Below are positions 3,384 through 17,062 of a DNA stretch of 17,062 bases, piece by piece (within the stretch, counting starts at the first letter, position 1; every line of letters begins with the position of its first letter). The DNA comes from Promethearchaeota archaeon (lineage in GTDB: Archaea > Asgardarchaeota > Lokiarchaeia > Sigyniarchaeales > SOKP01). The translations under genes and the position numbers were made by a program. The notes below the pieces were generated by a model that was not told where the DNA came from, ran no database searches, and saw nothing but the letters and a program-made list of their open reading frames with translations. The stretch lies in assembly GCA_016840085.1 (NCBI GenBank), contig JAEOTA010000080.1, positions 1-17,062 on the forward strand. Reading direction: 5' to 3'.

Positions 3384-3496
3384 AAATAGTCCTTCATATT
3401 TTTTTTGAGGTCAAAAATCACTTAAATTTTAATAAAACTATTTAGTTCTTTAGTAATAGAGCATAATTTTATAAAAATTTTTAGAGGTTATTATAG

Positions 3497-6400
3497 TTGA
3501 GATTTTTAGTTTTAAGTCATCGTAACCCCATTTCTCCTCCATATATCTTTTTAAAAATGCCAGAAACGATTCAAAGAGATGATATTCAACAAGTTCCTTT
3601 ATTGATCGATCTCTATGAGAGTGGGTTTTTTAAACATACGTTTGGAACTTTTAAAACAGCAAATTTAATCTTTGAGATTCCCAGTGAATATTCAGGTACA
3701 AAAAAGGAGCGTCTTTTAATTTCATTAGTTATTGATGGCAAATCCGAAATAAATACTGCTTTAGCTCAGAAATTTTTAGAGGGATTTGTTGAAGATTTCA
3801 AAAAAATCGATGATGCGTTCAAGGCTTTTTATATGAACTCTACAAGTTATAAAGGAGATCCTATAAAACTAGAGGAAATTAGAGTACTTCTAAATACTTT
3901 TAATATTTCTTTTCCAGAAGAGGAAGTCATATTTGAACAAAAAGAAGCAAAAATCTTAATTTTTGGGCTTTCAATGGCGGGGAAAACAACAATAATTCGA
4001 ACGAGAAGGAAGTCAGTATCAAAAGCAATATTTCCAACAATAAATGTCGACATTTCTAGAATTTTAGTTAATAATGTATCTTTATTGACTTATGATATCC
4101 CTGGAAAATATAACGTTAAGGAACTATGGAAACCCTATCTAAAAAACCAAGATGGATTGATATTTGTTTTAGATGTTACAGATAAAGTAAAATTCTCATA
4201 TGCTCGTGAGTTACTGCATGAAATTGCGGGGAAACCAGAGTTAAGTGAATTACCACTTCTTATCCTTTTTAATAAGATTGATTTAAAACAACCAGATATA
4301 AAAGATCTAGAAGATGCTATGGGACTGAAGAAACTTGGAAAGAGACCAATAAAATCATTTTTGACAAGTGGAATTAAAAATATTAATATTGATGAGGCAT
4401 TTAACTGGCTTTCCCTAAAAATTGCAGAGAGGGTAGAACAATTTACTCCAAAAAGCGAGGTTGGGATAATTTTATGTCGATGGGATGAAAATTTAGGTAT
4501 TAAAGCCGAAGCTGTATATCCTAATGATGCTTTTGAAAATCCAGAATTAATATCTATTAAAAGTGTTTCAATATCGCAATTTATTTTTAAAGGAGATGAA
4601 TTTAAACCAACGTCCGTAATTCTTCCATTTCCTCACCTAAATTCCAATGCAGCTATTTATTTTGACTTTATTGAAAATGAGAGTATTAGAGGCGGTTTAT
4701 TACCCTTATCTTTAATAATTTATTACAGTGAAAAAATTCCTAAAAATATAATTAACCAATTTAGTTCATTCATTGTTAAGCAATTTAACGACATAAAAAA
4801 GAATTATCTTGATAAAAAACAAGTGGAAGATATTCTTCAATCTATTCATAGTACGATAATTAATCAAATAACTTTATTTCAGCCTTCAATTGAAGCGCTA
4901 AAAATAGCTGAATTACGTTATGAGGCTTTATTTAAAGCTGCTCGAGATGCTATTTTAATTATTGATAAAACCTCAGGAATAATAATGGATGCTAACAAAG
5001 AAGCGGAGGAGTTATTTCAACGGCCATTTGAGGATTTTATTGGATTACATTCAAGTCAAGTATTAAGTGGGATTATTAATATAGATTTTAATGAAGAAGT
5101 ATTTGATCCTCTTGATTATCCCTTTCCTTTAAGATTAGAGGTCATTGATAATTCTGGTAATCTTATTCCAGTGGAAATTAGTGTAAGTGAAATCCAGATG
5201 GGGGGGCAAATCTTTGCCCAATATATTATTCGAGATATTACTATGAGAATAGAATCAGAAATTAAATTAAAGCATTCTGAAATAAAGTATCGTCACCTTT
5301 TCAAAGATTCACCTTTTTCTATTCTTTTAATTAATCCTAAAGGTTTTTTAGTTGATATTAATCCTGCTTTAGAAAAAACGTTAGGATATGCAAGAGAGGA
5401 ATTAATAGGACGAAAATTTGTTGATCTTTCACTAATACATCAAGATTATATAGTGGAGGTTCTTAAAAGATTTAAAAAAGAAGAAAGAGGTAAAATTTTT
5501 CCTTCAATAGAAATTCAGCTTTATCAGAAAAATGGCAGACTCATTTGGGTAAATATGCAATCATCTTTAGTTGATATTGGTGAAAATACATTTTATCAAA
5601 TAATATGTCAGAATATAACAGAACAGAAAAAAATAGAACAGGAATTAAAGAAGATATCAAGATTAAAAGCTATAATTACCGAAATAGTATCTAGATTTGT
5701 TGGTATAAAAGATTTTACTGAAGCACTCATTCTTTCACTTAGAGATATTGGTGAATTTGTTCATGCAACAAGAGCTTATCTTTATATTTTTAATAATATT
5801 TACGATTTCACGAAAAGAAATTATATATGGTATAGTAAATTAATGTATCCCAAAATTGGCTTGCCTAAAAACATATTAATTAATGATTTTCCATGGGTAA
5901 TTGAGAAATTAAAAATGTCTGATTATTTTTACATTAAAAATGTAAATAACCTTCCTGAACAAGCAACAAAATTGAAAAATTTTCTTAAAATTCATAAAAT
6001 TGAAAACCTTTTAACATTTTCAATAAAAATTGACGGCACCTTAGAAGGAATAGTTTGTTTTGATAATATAACAGAGGAGGATTATTGGATAGAAGAAAAT
6101 CTAGAATTATTAAGTATTATTTCAGATATCCTTAAAAATGTGATATTACGTAAAATAGCTGAAGAGAATTTACGTTTAAGTAAAGAATCTATTCACCAAG
6201 AATTTGATAGAGAGTATTTTTATAAGGAGCTATTTGTAAATGATATAAATACTATAATAAAGAGCATTCAATCCCTATTAGATGAATGTATCAAACAAGA
6301 TAATCAAATTATATTAAAATCTAGAAGAGAATTATTAGATTCTATTAAAGATCAATGTATAAACGGTAAACTTTTAATACATATAATAAAAAGGTTGACA

Positions 6401-6868
6401 TTACTTAATGAAGCAAAAATTATGATTGAACCTGTGAATTTAATTAATGTAATTCAGAATGTTATTGAATTTGTTACAAATAATTATTCTAATAAAAAAA
6501 TTGATATAATAGTTGAACATCCAAATGAGGATCTATATGTAAAAGCTGATAAGTTTCTAATAGATGTTTTTTTCAATATCATTTTTAGTTCAATTCGATA
6601 TAATAAAAAACCAATAATAGAGATTAAAATTATTATCTTTAGAAATCAAATAGAGAACGAAAATTATATTAAAGTAAAATTTGTCGATTATCAGAAAGAA
6701 ATTTTAAACATCGGGAAAGAAATGATCTTCAATAAAGAAAGAGAAAAAGATGATAAGATCAAAGAAATAATTTTAGGATTTCTTTTAGTGGAGCGAGTTT
6801 TAAATAATTATAGTGGAAAAATATGGGTTGAAGGAGATTCTTTTGTAATTTTATTACCTGAAGCTTAA
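3497..6868 (+). CDS. Multidomain signalling protein: longin-like, Arf-like small GTPase, longin/uDENN-like, PAS, PAS, GAF, degenerate HisKA/HATPase
   Basis: GTPase motifs: G1 GLSMAGKT (3965-3988), G2 FPT, G3 DIPG (4094), G4 NKID (4271), G5 TSG. PAS motifs: RYEALFKAARDAILIID...DANKEAEELF...RDIT and KYRHLFKDSP...INPALEKTLGYAREELIG...QNITEQK. GAF-like region ending EENLELLSIISDIL. Kinase-like tail FYKELFVNDIN...VKADKFLIDVFFNII...GKIWVE. Start is TTG (alternative ATG 3557). Confidence 0.85.
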   Translation: MRFLVLSHRNPISPPYIFLKMPETIQRDDIQQVPLLIDLYESGFFKHTFGTFKTANLIFEIPSEYSGTKKERLLISLVIDGKSEINTALAQKFLEGFVEDFKKIDDAFKAFYMNSTSYKGDPIKLEEIRVLLNTFNISFPEEEVIFEQKEAKILIFGLSMAGKTTIIRTRRKSVSKAIFPTINVDISRILVNNVSLLTYDIPGKYNVKELWKPYLKNQDGLIFVLDVTDKVKFSYARELLHEIAGKPELSELPLLILFNKIDLKQPDIKDLEDAMGLKKLGKRPIKSFLTSGIKNINIDEAFNWLSLKIAERVEQFTPKSEVGIILCRWDENLGIKAEAVYPNDAFENPELISIKSVSISQFIFKGDEFKPTSVILPFPHLNSNAAIYFDFIENESIRGGLLPLSLIIYYSEKIPKNIINQFSSFIVKQFNDIKKNYLDKKQVEDILQSIHSTIINQITLFQPSIEALKIAELRYEALFKAARDAILIIDKTSGIIMDANKEAEELFQRPFEDFIGLHSSQVLSGIINIDFNEEVFDPLDYPFPLRLEVIDNSGNLIPVEISVSEIQMGGQIFAQYIIRDITMRIESEIKLKHSEIKYRHLFKDSPFSILLINPKGFLVDINPALEKTLGYAREELIGRKFVDLSLIHQDYIVEVLKRFKKEERGKIFPSIEIQLYQKNGRLIWVNMQSSLVDIGENTFYQIICQNITEQKKIEQELKKISRLKAIITEIVSRFVGIKDFTEALILSLRDIGEFVHATRAYLYIFNNIYDFTKRNYIWYSKLMYPKIGLPKNILINDFPWVIEKLKMSDYFYIKNVNNLPEQATKLKNFLKIHKIENLLTFSIKIDGTLEGIVCFDNITEEDYWIEENLELLSIISDILKNVILRKIAEENLRLSKESIHQEFDREYFYKELFVNDINTIIKSIQSLLDECIKQDNQIILKSRRELLDSIKDQCINGKLLIHIIKRLTLLNEAKIMIEPVNLINVIQNVIEFVTNNYSNKKIDIIVEHPNEDLYVKADKFLIDVFFNIIFSSIRYNKKPIIEIKIIIFRNQIENENYIKVKFVDYQKEILNIGKEMIFNKEREKDDKIKEIILGFLLVERVLNNYSGKIWVEGDSFVILLPEA

Positions 6869-13700: not shown

Positions 13701-16700
13701 TTAATTTTCTAAATCAGAAATTATTTTTTTAATCTCTTCTACACGTTCAATGTTGCCCATCCCTCGATATGTATTCATTAAATATTCCAGGATTTTCAAA
13801 TCGTGGGGATTTAATTCTAAAGCTTTTTTGTAATAAATTTCAGCTTTAGAATAATTGCCTGTGTTGTAATATAAACCCGCAAGGTTTTGTAGTGTATCAT
13901 AATCCTTAGGATTAGATAAGAACATTCTTTTAAGAATCCATTCTCCTTTAGCAGTTTGTCTGGTGTTAAAATAAATGCGTGCTAGCATGTTTAACGTGTT
14001 CTTATCAGTTATATCCAATTCTAATAATCTCTTATAAACCTCCTCTGCTTTATCATATTGTTTTTGATTTAAATAAATAAATCCGAGATTAGAATACGGC
14101 TTAAGATACTTAGGATTAAGATTTAGAGAATTTTGCCAATATTCATGTGCTTTTTCAAAATCATTCCTATAATAATAAACTGTTCCAAGGATATTCAAAG
14201 CAGGGAGAAAATTAGGGTTGATTTCTAATACTCTTCTGACATATTCCTCAGCTTTATCAAAATCTCTCATTTTTAAGTAAGTAAAAGCGAAGATGTATAT
14301 TATCAAAAAATTATCAGTAGATTCAAACTTCTTTAGTAACTCTAAAGCTTGCTCAAATTCCTGTCTATTGACCTTGCATAAGACTGTACCCGCAGTGGCA
14401 TTTATTGAAGTTGAATTAATAACCAATACCTTTTGGAAGCAAATTGATGCTTCCTCAAATTTATTTAAAAATGCTAGGAGAAAGCCTTTAGCATTTAATA
14501 TTGGTTCTTCTTCAATTTCCTTCTGAAGTAATTCTAAAATCTTTTCTAAATAAACTCTCCCTTTTTCTTTTTCCCAGAGATATCCTTCTAATGTATATGG
14601 ATTAACATTAACATCTCTAAAAATATCATCCAAATTTATTTCATTTACTAGCAATTCAAGCTGTGGTAATCTATTTTCTTCCCATCTTTTGAAGGTTTTT
14701 TCTAAATCTTCCACATCTTGTAGTTTTCGTTTTAATTGAGTAAGTCCATAGTTAAAATCTTGGACTTCTGGAGTCGATCCGAATCCGCCTTGAATAGCTA
14801 TATCTATTGCTTCTTCAAGAGTTTCAATTGCATTCGATATTCTTCCTTGATTATAATATACCATGGCAATATCATTATATGTACCTGAGATTCCACCTAT
14901 ATCATTCGCTTTTTCATAATAGTCAAGAGCTTGTTCATAACTTTTCAAGGCATTTTGATAATCTCCAATATCTTTGTAAAAGGTACCCACTTTTTTAAGA
15001 TCAAACAAAACTCGTGGCATATCATTTAATCTTTTGTCTATTGGTAACGCTTCCTCTAGTAACTTTACCGCTTTATCTTTAGAATTTAGTTCACTATACA
15101 ATAAAGCCATATTTGTTAAGTAAATAGCTTTTTTTGCGAGATCTCCCAATATTTCTACCTTTTCCAACGCTTTTTCATAGTTTGCTAAAGCTAACTTTTT
15201 TTTCCCTTGTTGGGCATAAATTGATGCTATATTGTTTAAACGCACTGTTATTCCATTTAAATCACCTAATTCCTCGGAGATTTGTAAAGCTTCTTGAAAT
15301 TTTTCTAATGCATTTTCATATTCATTTTTAGAAAAATAAACAGAGCCTATATTACTAAGAAGCCGCGATTTAATACCTAAATCTCCTAATTTTTTATTTA
15401 TTTCTAAAGCTTTTTCATAATACTCAAAGGCTTCTTGATATTTCCTGTCTGAGAAGTATGTTAGACCAATATTATTTAGAATTGTAATTTTGTCTATAAC
15501 ATTTTGGGAGCTTTCAACAGTTTCTAGAGCTTTTTTCAGCCACACTATTGCTTCTTGATAATTTCTTTGAGATTTAAACACCATACCTATATTATTCAGA
15601 GTCATGGAACTGCGTTCAATAGCACCCAGTTCTAACGCTTTTTCATAACATTCTAAAGCTTTTTCAGGATCCCCTTTATCTAGATATATTAAACCATTAT
15701 TGTTAAGGAATGATGATTCTAACTCGATATTTCCTTTTTCTTTTGCTAGTTTTAATCCTATTTCTCCTATTCTAAGCGCAGCATCTGGTTGTGCTAACCT
15801 ATAGTACACTTCCCATGTGAATAATAGTTTTTTAATCTCATCAATGGGTTCTAGGGTCTTATAAAACCAATTTTCAGAATCGAATTCAATTGGAGAAATT
15901 TCAATGAAATTAGGTTGATTTAATCCATTAAGTAATAGCGTCCAAATGAATCTTCGGATAAAAATGGAGGTGTTTACATTGACTTTAAATATTTTAATTG
16001 GATTATCAAGAATAGCTGAATTATGAGCTAATTCTCTTAAGAAGGAAGTTACCCTATCGACATTTCCTGACTGATTTTCAGAACTTGCTTCAATACTAAC
16101 AATTTCTGGAACCTCAGCAGATGTATGATTTATCCATATTATTTTAGAAATATTTTGTAATTCTTTCAGAGTAGGACTAATATCAAAATCATCACTCCCT
16201 GAATATCCCATTACAAATAAAGTCCTTCCTTCTAGGAGATTAATTAATGCGGGTTTTTTGTAATCCTCAATCGCAAAGGTTGTTTCATCCCGATCCCTCC
16301 CTAAAGCAGATATGGTTGTAATTAAAGAATCCCGTGTATCTTCATCAGTTATAATATTTTTTTTAGATCCATGGATTTTATAAATCAGAAGTTTGCCTTC
16401 TTTTGTTAAATTACTTGGATTAGCATAATTCATGAAATCATTGCGAGTAATTATAGGTAATATTTTCAATTTATCTTCGATAATATTTAGTAACGCAAAT
16501 TCTATAAGATAATCAAAATTAGTCGTAATTACTTGGTGTCCCTGATCAAGACTATGAGCTAGAAAATAATGAAGAATATTTGGCCGAGTATAATTGTCAA
16601 AGAAATCCATTATTCTTAACTCTTGATCAAAATATTTTTGAATAAATTCTATGACTGTTTCATATCGTAAACCTTCTAAGGATAAGACTTTACTAACTTC

Positions 16701-16850
16701 TTCATCAGGTACACATAATTTCACAAGGGTTTTTACTATCTCAACTGCAGATTTGAGACCTGAAGGTTGCTCTATCGAAATTCCAGCACCAACTAGAAAT
16801 GTGAATTTTTCATTGGGACGGATAATTTCCTTTAATTCATGGAGAACCAT
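13701..16850 (-). CDS. SIR2-like (SIR2_2) domain plus tetratricopeptide repeat protein
   Basis: FLVGAGIS, ITTNFDYLIE, YKIHGS and LFVMGYSGSDDFDI in the N-terminal ~245 aa. Many TPRs follow, of the types LNNIGxxY...A..YEKAL and NLG..Y...KAE..YK...ELN. Confidence 0.9.
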   Translation of the reverse strand: MVLHELKEIIRPNEKFTFLVGAGISIEQPSGLKSAVEIVKTLVKLCVPDEEVSKVLSLEGLRYETVIEFIQKYFDQELRIMDFFDNYTRPNILHYFLAHSLDQGHQVITTNFDYLIEFALLNIIEDKLKILPIITRNDFMNYANPSNLTKEGKLLIYKIHGSKKNIITDEDTRDSLITTISALGRDRDETTFAIEDYKKPALINLLEGRTLFVMGYSGSDDFDISPTLKELQNISKIIWINHTSAEVPEIVSIEASSENQSGNVDRVTSFLRELAHNSAILDNPIKIFKVNVNTSIFIRRFIWTLLLNGLNQPNFIEISPIEFDSENWFYKTLEPIDEIKKLLFTWEVYYRLAQPDAALRIGEIGLKLAKEKGNIELESSFLNNNGLIYLDKGDPEKALECYEKALELGAIERSSMTLNNIGMVFKSQRNYQEAIVWLKKALETVESSQNVIDKITILNNIGLTYFSDRKYQEAFEYYEKALEINKKLGDLGIKSRLLSNIGSVYFSKNEYENALEKFQEALQISEELGDLNGITVRLNNIASIYAQQGKKKLALANYEKALEKVEILGDLAKKAIYLTNMALLYSELNSKDKAVKLLEEALPIDKRLNDMPRVLFDLKKVGTFYKDIGDYQNALKSYEQALDYYEKANDIGGISGTYNDIAMVYYNQGRISNAIETLEEAIDIAIQGGFGSTPEVQDFNYGLTQLKRKLQDVEDLEKTFKRWEENRLPQLELLVNEINLDDIFRDVNVNPYTLEGYLWEKEKGRVYLEKILELLQKEIEEEPILNAKGFLLAFLNKFEEASICFQKVLVINSTSINATAGTVLCKVNRQEFEQALELLKKFESTDNFLIIYIFAFTYLKMRDFDKAEEYVRRVLEINPNFLPALNILGTVYYYRNDFEKAHEYWQNSLNLNPKYLKPYSNLGFIYLNQKQYDKAEEVYKRLLELDITDKNTLNMLARIYFNTRQTAKGEWILKRMFLSNPKDYDTLQNLAGLYYNTGNYSKAEIYYKKALELNPHDLKILEYLMNTYRGMGNIERVEEIKKIISDLEN

Positions 16851-16935: not shown

Positions 16936-17062
16936 AGATAATTTTTAATTTACCTTCATCGACAAAAATATTTATAGCTTTTGGAGGCTTAATTAAATCA
17001 CGTTTTTCCTAAACGACAGACTTAAATTCGCCTAATCCTCTATTTTAATTAATGAATTAATT
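16936..17062 (-). repeat. Right copy of the 127-bp terminal inverted repeat
   Basis: The reverse complement reads aattaattcattaattaaaatagaggattaggcg...taaattaaaaattatct, identical to 1-127. Confidence 0.97.

Follow-up and report, generated by a model that had tools for sequence, protein, structure and literature searches.

A lokiarchaeal Arf-like GTPase between two longins, followed by sensor domains and a pseudokinase: a possible kinase-dead scaffold derived from a GTPase-activating device

The question raised by this locus is what a single polypeptide does that carries an Arf-like GTPase (G) domain between two longin domains at the head of a chain of PAS, GAF and histidine kinase-derived modules. 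The gene lies on the forward strand at positions 3497-6868 of a 17,062-nucleotide (nt) stretch of DNA from a Promethearchaeota archaeon (GCA_016840085.1, contig JAEOTA010000080.1; hereafter the window), which is the whole of our contig C77 in a host genome of 4.7 Mb and 29.5% G+C. We favour, with a probability of about 0.4, the reading that the window protein is a kinase-dead, hydrolysis-impaired scaffold derived from a self-contained GTPase-activating protein (GAP) device. The initial annotation of this DNA had reported a single uninterrupted frame of 1123 amino acids (aa), an Arf GTPase joined to a PAS-PAS-GAF-kinase-derived tail, and an Asgard origin; the frame is indeed open for 1123 codons, Pfam upholds the architecture (with weak GAF and HATPase matches), and close relatives are labelled Promethearchaeota or Lokiarchaeota. 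The features, in window coordinates, are:

3484..3487, forward: Shine-Dalgarno-like GAGG, 9 nt 5' of the TTG start
3497..6868, forward: whole gene, 1123 aa, longin-1/Arf-like G domain/longin-2/PAS/PAS/GAF/DHp-like/degenerate HATPase
3497..3928 (aa 1-144), forward: longin-1, NPRL2/FLCN/SMCR8-type fold, from the model and fold matches
3935..4432 (aa 147-312), forward: Arf-like G domain, from Pfam, PDB matches and alignment
4457..4888 (aa ~321-464), forward: longin-2, from the model and fold matches
4910..5251 (aa ~472-585), forward: PAS-1 (Pfam), the constant neighbour of longin-2 in sensor-bearing members
5279..5641 (aa ~595-715), forward: PAS-2 (Pfam)
5699..6166 (aa ~735-890), forward: GAF-like domain (weak Pfam match), missing in relatives of ~950 aa
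6194..6406, forward: DHp-like helices, with the phospho-accepting His replaced by Asn915 (nt 6239-6241)
6419..6865, forward: degenerate HATPase domain, with N-box, G1 and G2 degraded, under purifying selection

The TTG start follows directly after a TAG stop and was assigned on the basis of orthologues that share the same first residue; database calls of the gene at 1103 aa begin at Met21 and would remove longin-1 strands b1-b2. The protein is soluble, with a maximum 19-residue hydropathy of 1.33 and zero transmembrane segments. Beyond the Arf domain, Pfam placed two PAS domains at aa ~474-570 and 598-711, a weak GAF at aa 742-879 (E 0.02) and a weak, below cut-off HATPase at aa 1019-1122 (E 2e-4 to 7e-3). 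A promoter and terminator scan of the gene surroundings gave chance-level matches only.

The two flanks of the G domain were modelled singly (aa 1-146 and aa 316-465), with predicted local distance difference test (pLDDT) scores of 94 for longin-1 and 88 for longin-2, and both models have the b-b-a-b-b-b-a-a longin topology. Both matched known longins at Z 12-16, and the top Foldseek ranks for each were taken by GATOR1/SEA NPRL2 chains, Lst4, FLCN-FNIP2 and the Lokiarchaeota longin 8YQG. Using VIA-align, longin-1 matched 8YQG at Z 13.3 (root mean square deviation, rmsd, 2.9 over 131 residues) and both FLCN (6NZD) and NPRL2 (8FW5_B) at Z 12.5; longin-2 matched 8YQG at Z 15.8 (rmsd 2.5 over 135 residues), FLCN (6NZD) at Z 12.2, Lst4 at Z 11.7 and C9orf72/SMCR8 at Z 10.7-10.8, whilst longins of the guanine nucleotide exchange factor (GEF) type (DENND1A, Mon1-Ccz1, TRAPP) scored lower (Z 8-9.5). 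Judged by these models both flanking segments are longins, as had been proposed initially from two N-terminal strings, found here at aa 3 and aa 324, and the structure modelling and Foldseek comparison suggested at that time returned the longin fold for both. The two domains are also homologous to one another (hhalign 90%, E 1.6e-6), in an alignment that brings their RG motifs into register. Since GAP-type longins are the best structural neighbours and GEF-type longins rank below them, the pair appears closer to the GAP class (FLCN/NPRL2/SMCR8/C9orf72), with its GP, WD and arginine motifs, than to the GEF class, and the GEF/DENN role that had also been offered fits poorly: neither longin is followed by a DENN or NPRL2 C-terminal module, the G domain and PAS coming directly next. 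Sequence searches missed the longins, with no NPR2 or Folliculin Pfam match above cut-off in the window protein or its alignments, only sporadic Folliculin/Afi1 matches below significance for the longin segments and their alignments, and only NPRL2 residues 9-40 (E about 0.4-0.5) in PDB sequence searches with the longins; a search of the genome with the NPR2 and Folliculin profiles returned zero matches above cut-off. Atlas matches (0.81-0.89, with an NPR2-bearing cluster at rank 6) serve as leads only. The genome encodes five further longin-1-type proteins (C89:41790-42800, C85:9436-10608, C5:64654-65493, C19:29297-29791 and C24:81139-82176); those on C85 and C19 keep GP and WARG, and the one on C89 has lost the arginine and has an extra C-terminal domain that is MEDS-like by eye.

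Three motifs mark the GAP-class longins: a GP that precedes strand b2, an arginine finger in the loop joining b4 to b5, and WD; in C9orf72 W33-D34 stands beside G38-P39 and the W33G/D34K mutation nearly abolishes activity, a two-longin cup holds ARF1, and R147 of SMCR8 is catalytic (PMC12290439, PMC8213707, 10.64898/2026.01.05.697756). In intact relatives of the window protein the longin-1 GP occupies aa 14-15 and the b4-b5 loop carries Arg67; the GP is present in 36/49 distant members, and P0100 has it in both longins. Both features are lost from longin-1 of the window protein, where GP is replaced by PP (aa 14-15, nt 3536-3541) and the family arginine by Gly67 (nt 3695-3697). Longin-2 has GI at the GP position, in keeping with relatives that mostly lack this Pro, and carries W329-D330-x3-G334, with a spacing identical to W33-D34-x3-G38 of C9orf72; W329 is kept in 119, D330 in 118 and G334 in all of 120 relatives. 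It also has its own arginine, Arg398 (IRGG), which the model places between b4 and b5 and which 118/120 relatives keep. Motifs and models taken together, the head of the family appears to consist of an Arf domain flanked by one SMCR8-like longin and one that is C9orf72-like.

The G domain was assigned by Pfam to Arf (aa 147-307, E 4e-35, 121 bits against a cut-off of 22), with 42 bits for Ras, and its best PDB matches are to ARF1 and also to 8OUN (E 6e-32), which we take to be an Asgard ArfR structure. The N-terminal amphipathic helix of the Arf type is absent, the N-terminus being longin-1 instead. All five of the small-GTPase motifs first reported are present, namely G1 GLSMAGKTT (157-165), G2 T181, G3 DIPGK (200-204), G4 NKID (259-262) and G5 TSG (290-292), and G1, G2 and G4 do not vary among about 120 relatives; what had been missed is that the catalytic Gln of G3 has given way to Lys204 (nt 4106-4108). 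Position 204 is Lys throughout the window's clade (51 sequences) and Gln in 61 relatives. To judge from the sequence, the parts for hydrolysis are gone in the window's clade (Gln204 to Lys, longin-1 GP and arginine lost) and the nucleotide-binding motifs and the longin-2 WD/Arg398 are kept; thus, of the small-GTPase switching proposed by the initial annotation, the motifs for nucleotide binding stand, but ordinary switching is doubtful because both Gln204 and the longin-1 arginine have been lost. Where helix a1 of the G domain ends, an RRK patch (aa 170-172, 4004-4012) is invariant (71/71) in the Lys204 clade and its near relatives and variable in distant members, and is a possible new interface.

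The C-terminal tail is homologous to intact kinases of the same genome (E 1e-32 to 4e-24), three of which keep HD, NxxxN, DNGxG and GxG(L/F)GL. In the window protein the H-box reads FVNDIN (His to Asn915), the N-box NIIFSS (second Asn to Ser) and G1 DYQKEI in place of DNGxG, and the G2 GxGL is lost (ILGFLL). Since the phospho-accepting His, the second N-box Asn and the G1 and G2 boxes are all missing, the kinase is predicted to be catalytically dead, a pseudokinase that could not serve as a two-component transmitter; the histidine-kinase input and two-component coupling first suggested for this protein do not survive this loss of every catalytic motif. Its probable role is that of a sensor scaffold that binds GTP and has no kinase activity, not that of a phosphorelay component. 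Loss of the phospho-accepting His is widespread, this residue being kept in only 25 of about 120 relatives, with nine changes of state on the family tree (whose backbone is unresolved and whose root is assumed), and all kinase motifs being kept in few (P0100 and P0109, with HD, NxxxN, DNGIG and GxGL behind the same head).

Searching with aa 1-470 gave 133 clusters; the 120 of these that were listed are 45-91% identical to the window protein and nearly all carry Arf and PAS. The full-length gene occurs without stops in 13 other genomes of the genus (75-91% identity), in one of them on a single-contig chromosome. Among 200 genomes sampled evenly across the phylum, 10/40 from the window's taxonomic family encode the full head, against 0/160 of the others; one genome of another family within the order also has it. 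The gene is patchy and restricted to the Lokiarchaeia. A wider distribution in Hodarchaeota, Thorarchaeota and Odinarchaeota, suggested by the NCBI labels of copies 73-82% identical, was rejected, the GTDB sample confining full-length heads almost to the window's family. All domains are under purifying selection: the median ratio of nonsynonymous to synonymous substitution rates (dN/dS) over 12 orthologues is 0.10 for the G domain, 0.19 and 0.17 for the longins, 0.11 and 0.20 for the PAS domains, 0.35 for GAF, 0.21 for DHp and 0.13 for the dead catalytic domain. In eight loci (L016:405-1349, L022, L024-L027, L030 and L057) a separate small-GTPase gene (~320 aa) adjoins a family member; that of L016 is on the same strand directly upstream of a member of ~950 aa and is a candidate trans substrate.

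The constant unit of the family is longin-G-longin(-PAS), and the tail after PAS-1 varies freely, with 0-7 PAS, 0-2 GAF and with or without a kinase. Many members are kinase-free (473-730 aa), and giant members (P0159, 2317 aa; P0190, 1772 aa; P0185, 1383 aa) have the same head with up to 7 PAS and up to 2 GAF, P0159 ending in a strong HATPase match (E 8e-18). Three kinds of variant bear on the relation between the longins and the G domain. First, in the P0182 cluster (632 aa, ENA, three members), which nests beside the full-length P0090, the G domain is precisely deleted, leaving longin-1/longin-2/PAS/kinase with the longins adjacent and in frame. Second, P0173, P0189 (L017:1246-3351, reverse strand) and P0197 have broken G1/G4 motifs and have lost the longin-2 WD and RGG, with the longin-1 GP and arginine kept. 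Third, Arg67 of longin-1 is kept in 79/79 relatives with Gln or His204 vs 11/56 with Lys or Tyr204; on the tree GP was lost first, then Gln, then Arg, and Arg was lost independently in a second small clade with Tyr204. The window protein is, by its sequence, a derived form of the family.

The mechanism that we propose for the family is that longin-1 and longin-2 pair within the chain into a cup like that of C9orf72-SMCR8, FLCN-FNIP or NPRL2-NPRL3, the substrate being the Arf-like domain between them or that of a partner chain; the Trp-Asp of longin-2 would hold the G domain and the arginine of longin-1 would drive hydrolysis; after the head come PAS and GAF domains in varying number and then a histidine kinase. 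In the window's clade this soluble, probably dimeric signalling protein of the Lokiarchaeia would most likely rest GTP-bound and docked on longin-2, with the pseudokinase as a stalk dimerizing through its DHp helices, and a ligand signal from PAS or GAF would be relayed by conformation instead of phosphotransfer, exposing or hiding a G-domain/longin surface for partner proteins. The GAP-type folds, the Arg/Gln pattern, the loss of WD/RGG with broken G1/G4, the G-domain deletion, the dN/dS values and the repeated loss of His are suggestive of such a scaffold. We hold still more tentatively the fuller version, in which the family is a natural single-chain C9orf72-SMCR8-ARF1 GAP-substrate complex whose hydrolysis is gated by a PAS/GAF ligand or by the kinase, the window's clade being a locked-on, kinase-dead derivative.

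Several points weigh against the scaffold and its GAP ancestry. The equivalence of Arg67 and Arg398 to NPRL2 R78 and SMCR8 R147, and of Arg398 also to R164, would be one of topology and not of superposed residues. GP and Arg are present in 134/143 rows of the broader family of Asgard longins, irrespective of GTPase fusion, so their presence alone proves little, and they could be structural or act in trans. The co-loss of Arg67 and Gln204 amounts to two independent events only (sign test p=0.5), and three two-domain longin-Arf relatives have lost Arg and kept Gln, because of which the link is suggestive and not established. Linkers of about 10-13 aa may preclude docking in cis. Finally, no conserved neighbour genes or adjacent response regulator were found at the loci of the window's clade, and no ligand or partner of the protein is known. 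A complex prediction for longin-1, longin-2 and the G domain of P0100 with GTP scored 0.18, with the mark at 0.32, and counts neither for nor against this reading.

The alternative that survives best, although we think it unlikely, reverses the flow of information: the longin-G-longin head would be an input that senses a partner GTPase or GTP/GDP, with the kinase at the C-terminus as the output, so that intact members autophosphorylate and the window pseudokinase, like DivL, tunes a paralogous kinase or response regulator by binding. The usual order of such proteins is an N-terminal input followed by a C-terminal kinase, and DivL of Caulobacter is a pseudo-histidine kinase. That some relatives keep a full kinase behind the same head (P0100, P0109 and P0159), that the dead catalytic domain is well conserved and that the genome encodes active paralogous kinases with intact motifs would all fit; yet the kinase motifs decay repeatedly behind an invariant head, many members have no kinase at all, and no response regulator or kinase gene recurs beside family members.

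Less probable again is a GTPase/GAP that still cycles, longin-2 supplying both WD and a finger, Arg398, to its own G domain (Lys204 being tolerated or even helping) or in trans to other Arf/Rag-like GTPases, with longin-1 a scaffold only and PAS/GAF gating the GAP. The position of Arg398 in the b4-b5 loop and its retention even in the Lys204 clade are as this would require, RGG is lost where the nucleotide motifs of the G domain break, and about 20 other small GTPases are available in the genome. Weighed against these are the general absence of the Pro of GP from longin-2, the impairment of Ras hydrolysis by Gln to Lys at the equivalent position, and the failure of C9orf72-SMCR8 to hydrolyse ARF1 Q71L. 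A role for the longins in nucleotide exchange or as passive platforms (as in Mon1-Ccz1, TRAPP and DENND1), with the arginines structural, we consider improbable: eukaryotic longin dimers are mainly GEFs (PMC10933270) and RG is kept even by longins to which no GTPase is fused, but the fold searches placed GEF-type longins clearly lower than those of the GAP type, and GP and WD are reported as GAP-class motifs. An assembly chimera or decaying pseudogene, for which one might cite the metagenome-assembled contig and the drift in G+C from 0.31 to 0.22 along the gene, can be dismissed, a chimeric join being ruled out by the same fusion in independent assemblies (the 13 genomes above and more than 100 clusters) and decay being contradicted by dN/dS well below 1 in every domain.

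Two further observations concern the window itself. Its ends (1-127 and 16936-17062) form a perfect 127-bp inverted repeat, and the same 127-mer ends contigs C79, C80 and C33 and is internal in C12, C41, C74 and C86; about 30 other contig-end pairs have exact 127-mers in common. A cargo transposon bounded by these repeats was rejected in favour of an assembler k-mer overlap at a dispersed repeat. On the reverse strand, 13701-16850 encodes a 1049-aa protein with a SIR2-like domain and a long TPR array, possibly of NADase-type defence or signalling function.

Asgard archaea encode dozens of small GTPases and longins, genome layout rarely reveals which of them pair, and no Asgard GAP or GEF has so far been assigned its substrate (PMC10933270, PMC12290439). 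In this family the candidate substrate sits fused between GAP-type longins with complementary SMCR8-like and C9orf72-like motifs, and the family offers natural controls in the form of intact members, members that have lost Gln and Arg (including the window protein), nucleotide-dead members and a G-domain deletion; this fused substrate and natural loss-of-function series make Asgard longin GAP activity directly testable. If the single-chain GAP-substrate complex were true, a prokaryotic longin GAP would for the first time have its substrate identified, and the family could tell us whether Arf was already served by longin GAP chemistry before eukaryotes arose and in what way that chemistry was connected to prokaryotic sensors. 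The Lokiarchaeia, in which this patchily distributed family is an innovation, are not the lineage closest to eukaryotes, and the family may therefore be a parallel invention from shared parts.

Many of the parts have been published. An Asgard NPRL2-like longin fused to two-component domains was described by Liu et al. (bioRxiv 10.1101/2020.10.19.343400, Fig. 5c), and the window protein fits this class in having an NPRL2-like longin and PAS/GAF/kinase-derived domains on one chain, a proposed link between eukaryote-like regulators and prokaryotic signalling; their text mentions no GTPase inside the fusions, no paired longins and no pseudokinase, and Fig. 5c may or may not draw the exact architecture. 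That figure apart, our literature search found no description of a double-longin/Arf/kinase chain, which is apparently undescribed, and GTPase fusions go unmentioned in Galperin's archaeal two-component census and in a paper on Asgard sensor kinases. With pseudo-histidine kinases such as DivL and the Asgard kinases lacking His, the window protein shares a PAS-linked kinase scaffold without the phospho-accepting residue; unlike them it also lacks the ATP-binding G boxes and has a eukaryote-like GTPase head. Such His-less Asgard kinases have been mentioned (PMC10343646). Asgard Arfs with N-terminal longins are noted by Zhu et al. (2025), and longin-GTPase fusions are known from MK-D1 (Tran et al., 2024; PMC10933270). 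Asgard ArfR/AArf proteins (10.1101/2024.02.28.582541, PMC11914678) resemble the family in their Arf-like G domain and, in some AArfs, in an N-terminal longin that replaces the amphipathic helix, whereas the family, Arf-like by its Pfam and PDB matches, has a second longin and sensor/kinase modules, a G3 of DxPG(Q/K) instead of DVGGQ and no membrane-binding helix. The C9orf72-SMCR8(-WDR41) ARF GAP, FLCN-FNIP2 and NPRL2-NPRL3 of GATOR1 (PDB 7O2W/6LT0, 6NZD/8DHB and 7T3B) likewise combine two longins that belong to a single structural class, GP and the b4-b5 arginine being on one and WD-x3-G on the other, with an Arf-type GTPase the likely substrate here too; unlike these complexes the family, known here from sequence and models, is one chain that includes the GTPase, has no DENN modules, adds a PAS/GAF/kinase tail and has an arginine also in longin-2, and the window copy lacks the longin-1 GP and Arg and the G3 Gln. 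Comparable in motif are the FLCN/SMCR8-type Asgard longins, in which GP and arginine fingers have been reported and for which ArfR or Rag was asked about as the substrate (Traffic 2025; PMC12290439): the motifs are the same, and in the present family the candidate substrate is fused between the longins.

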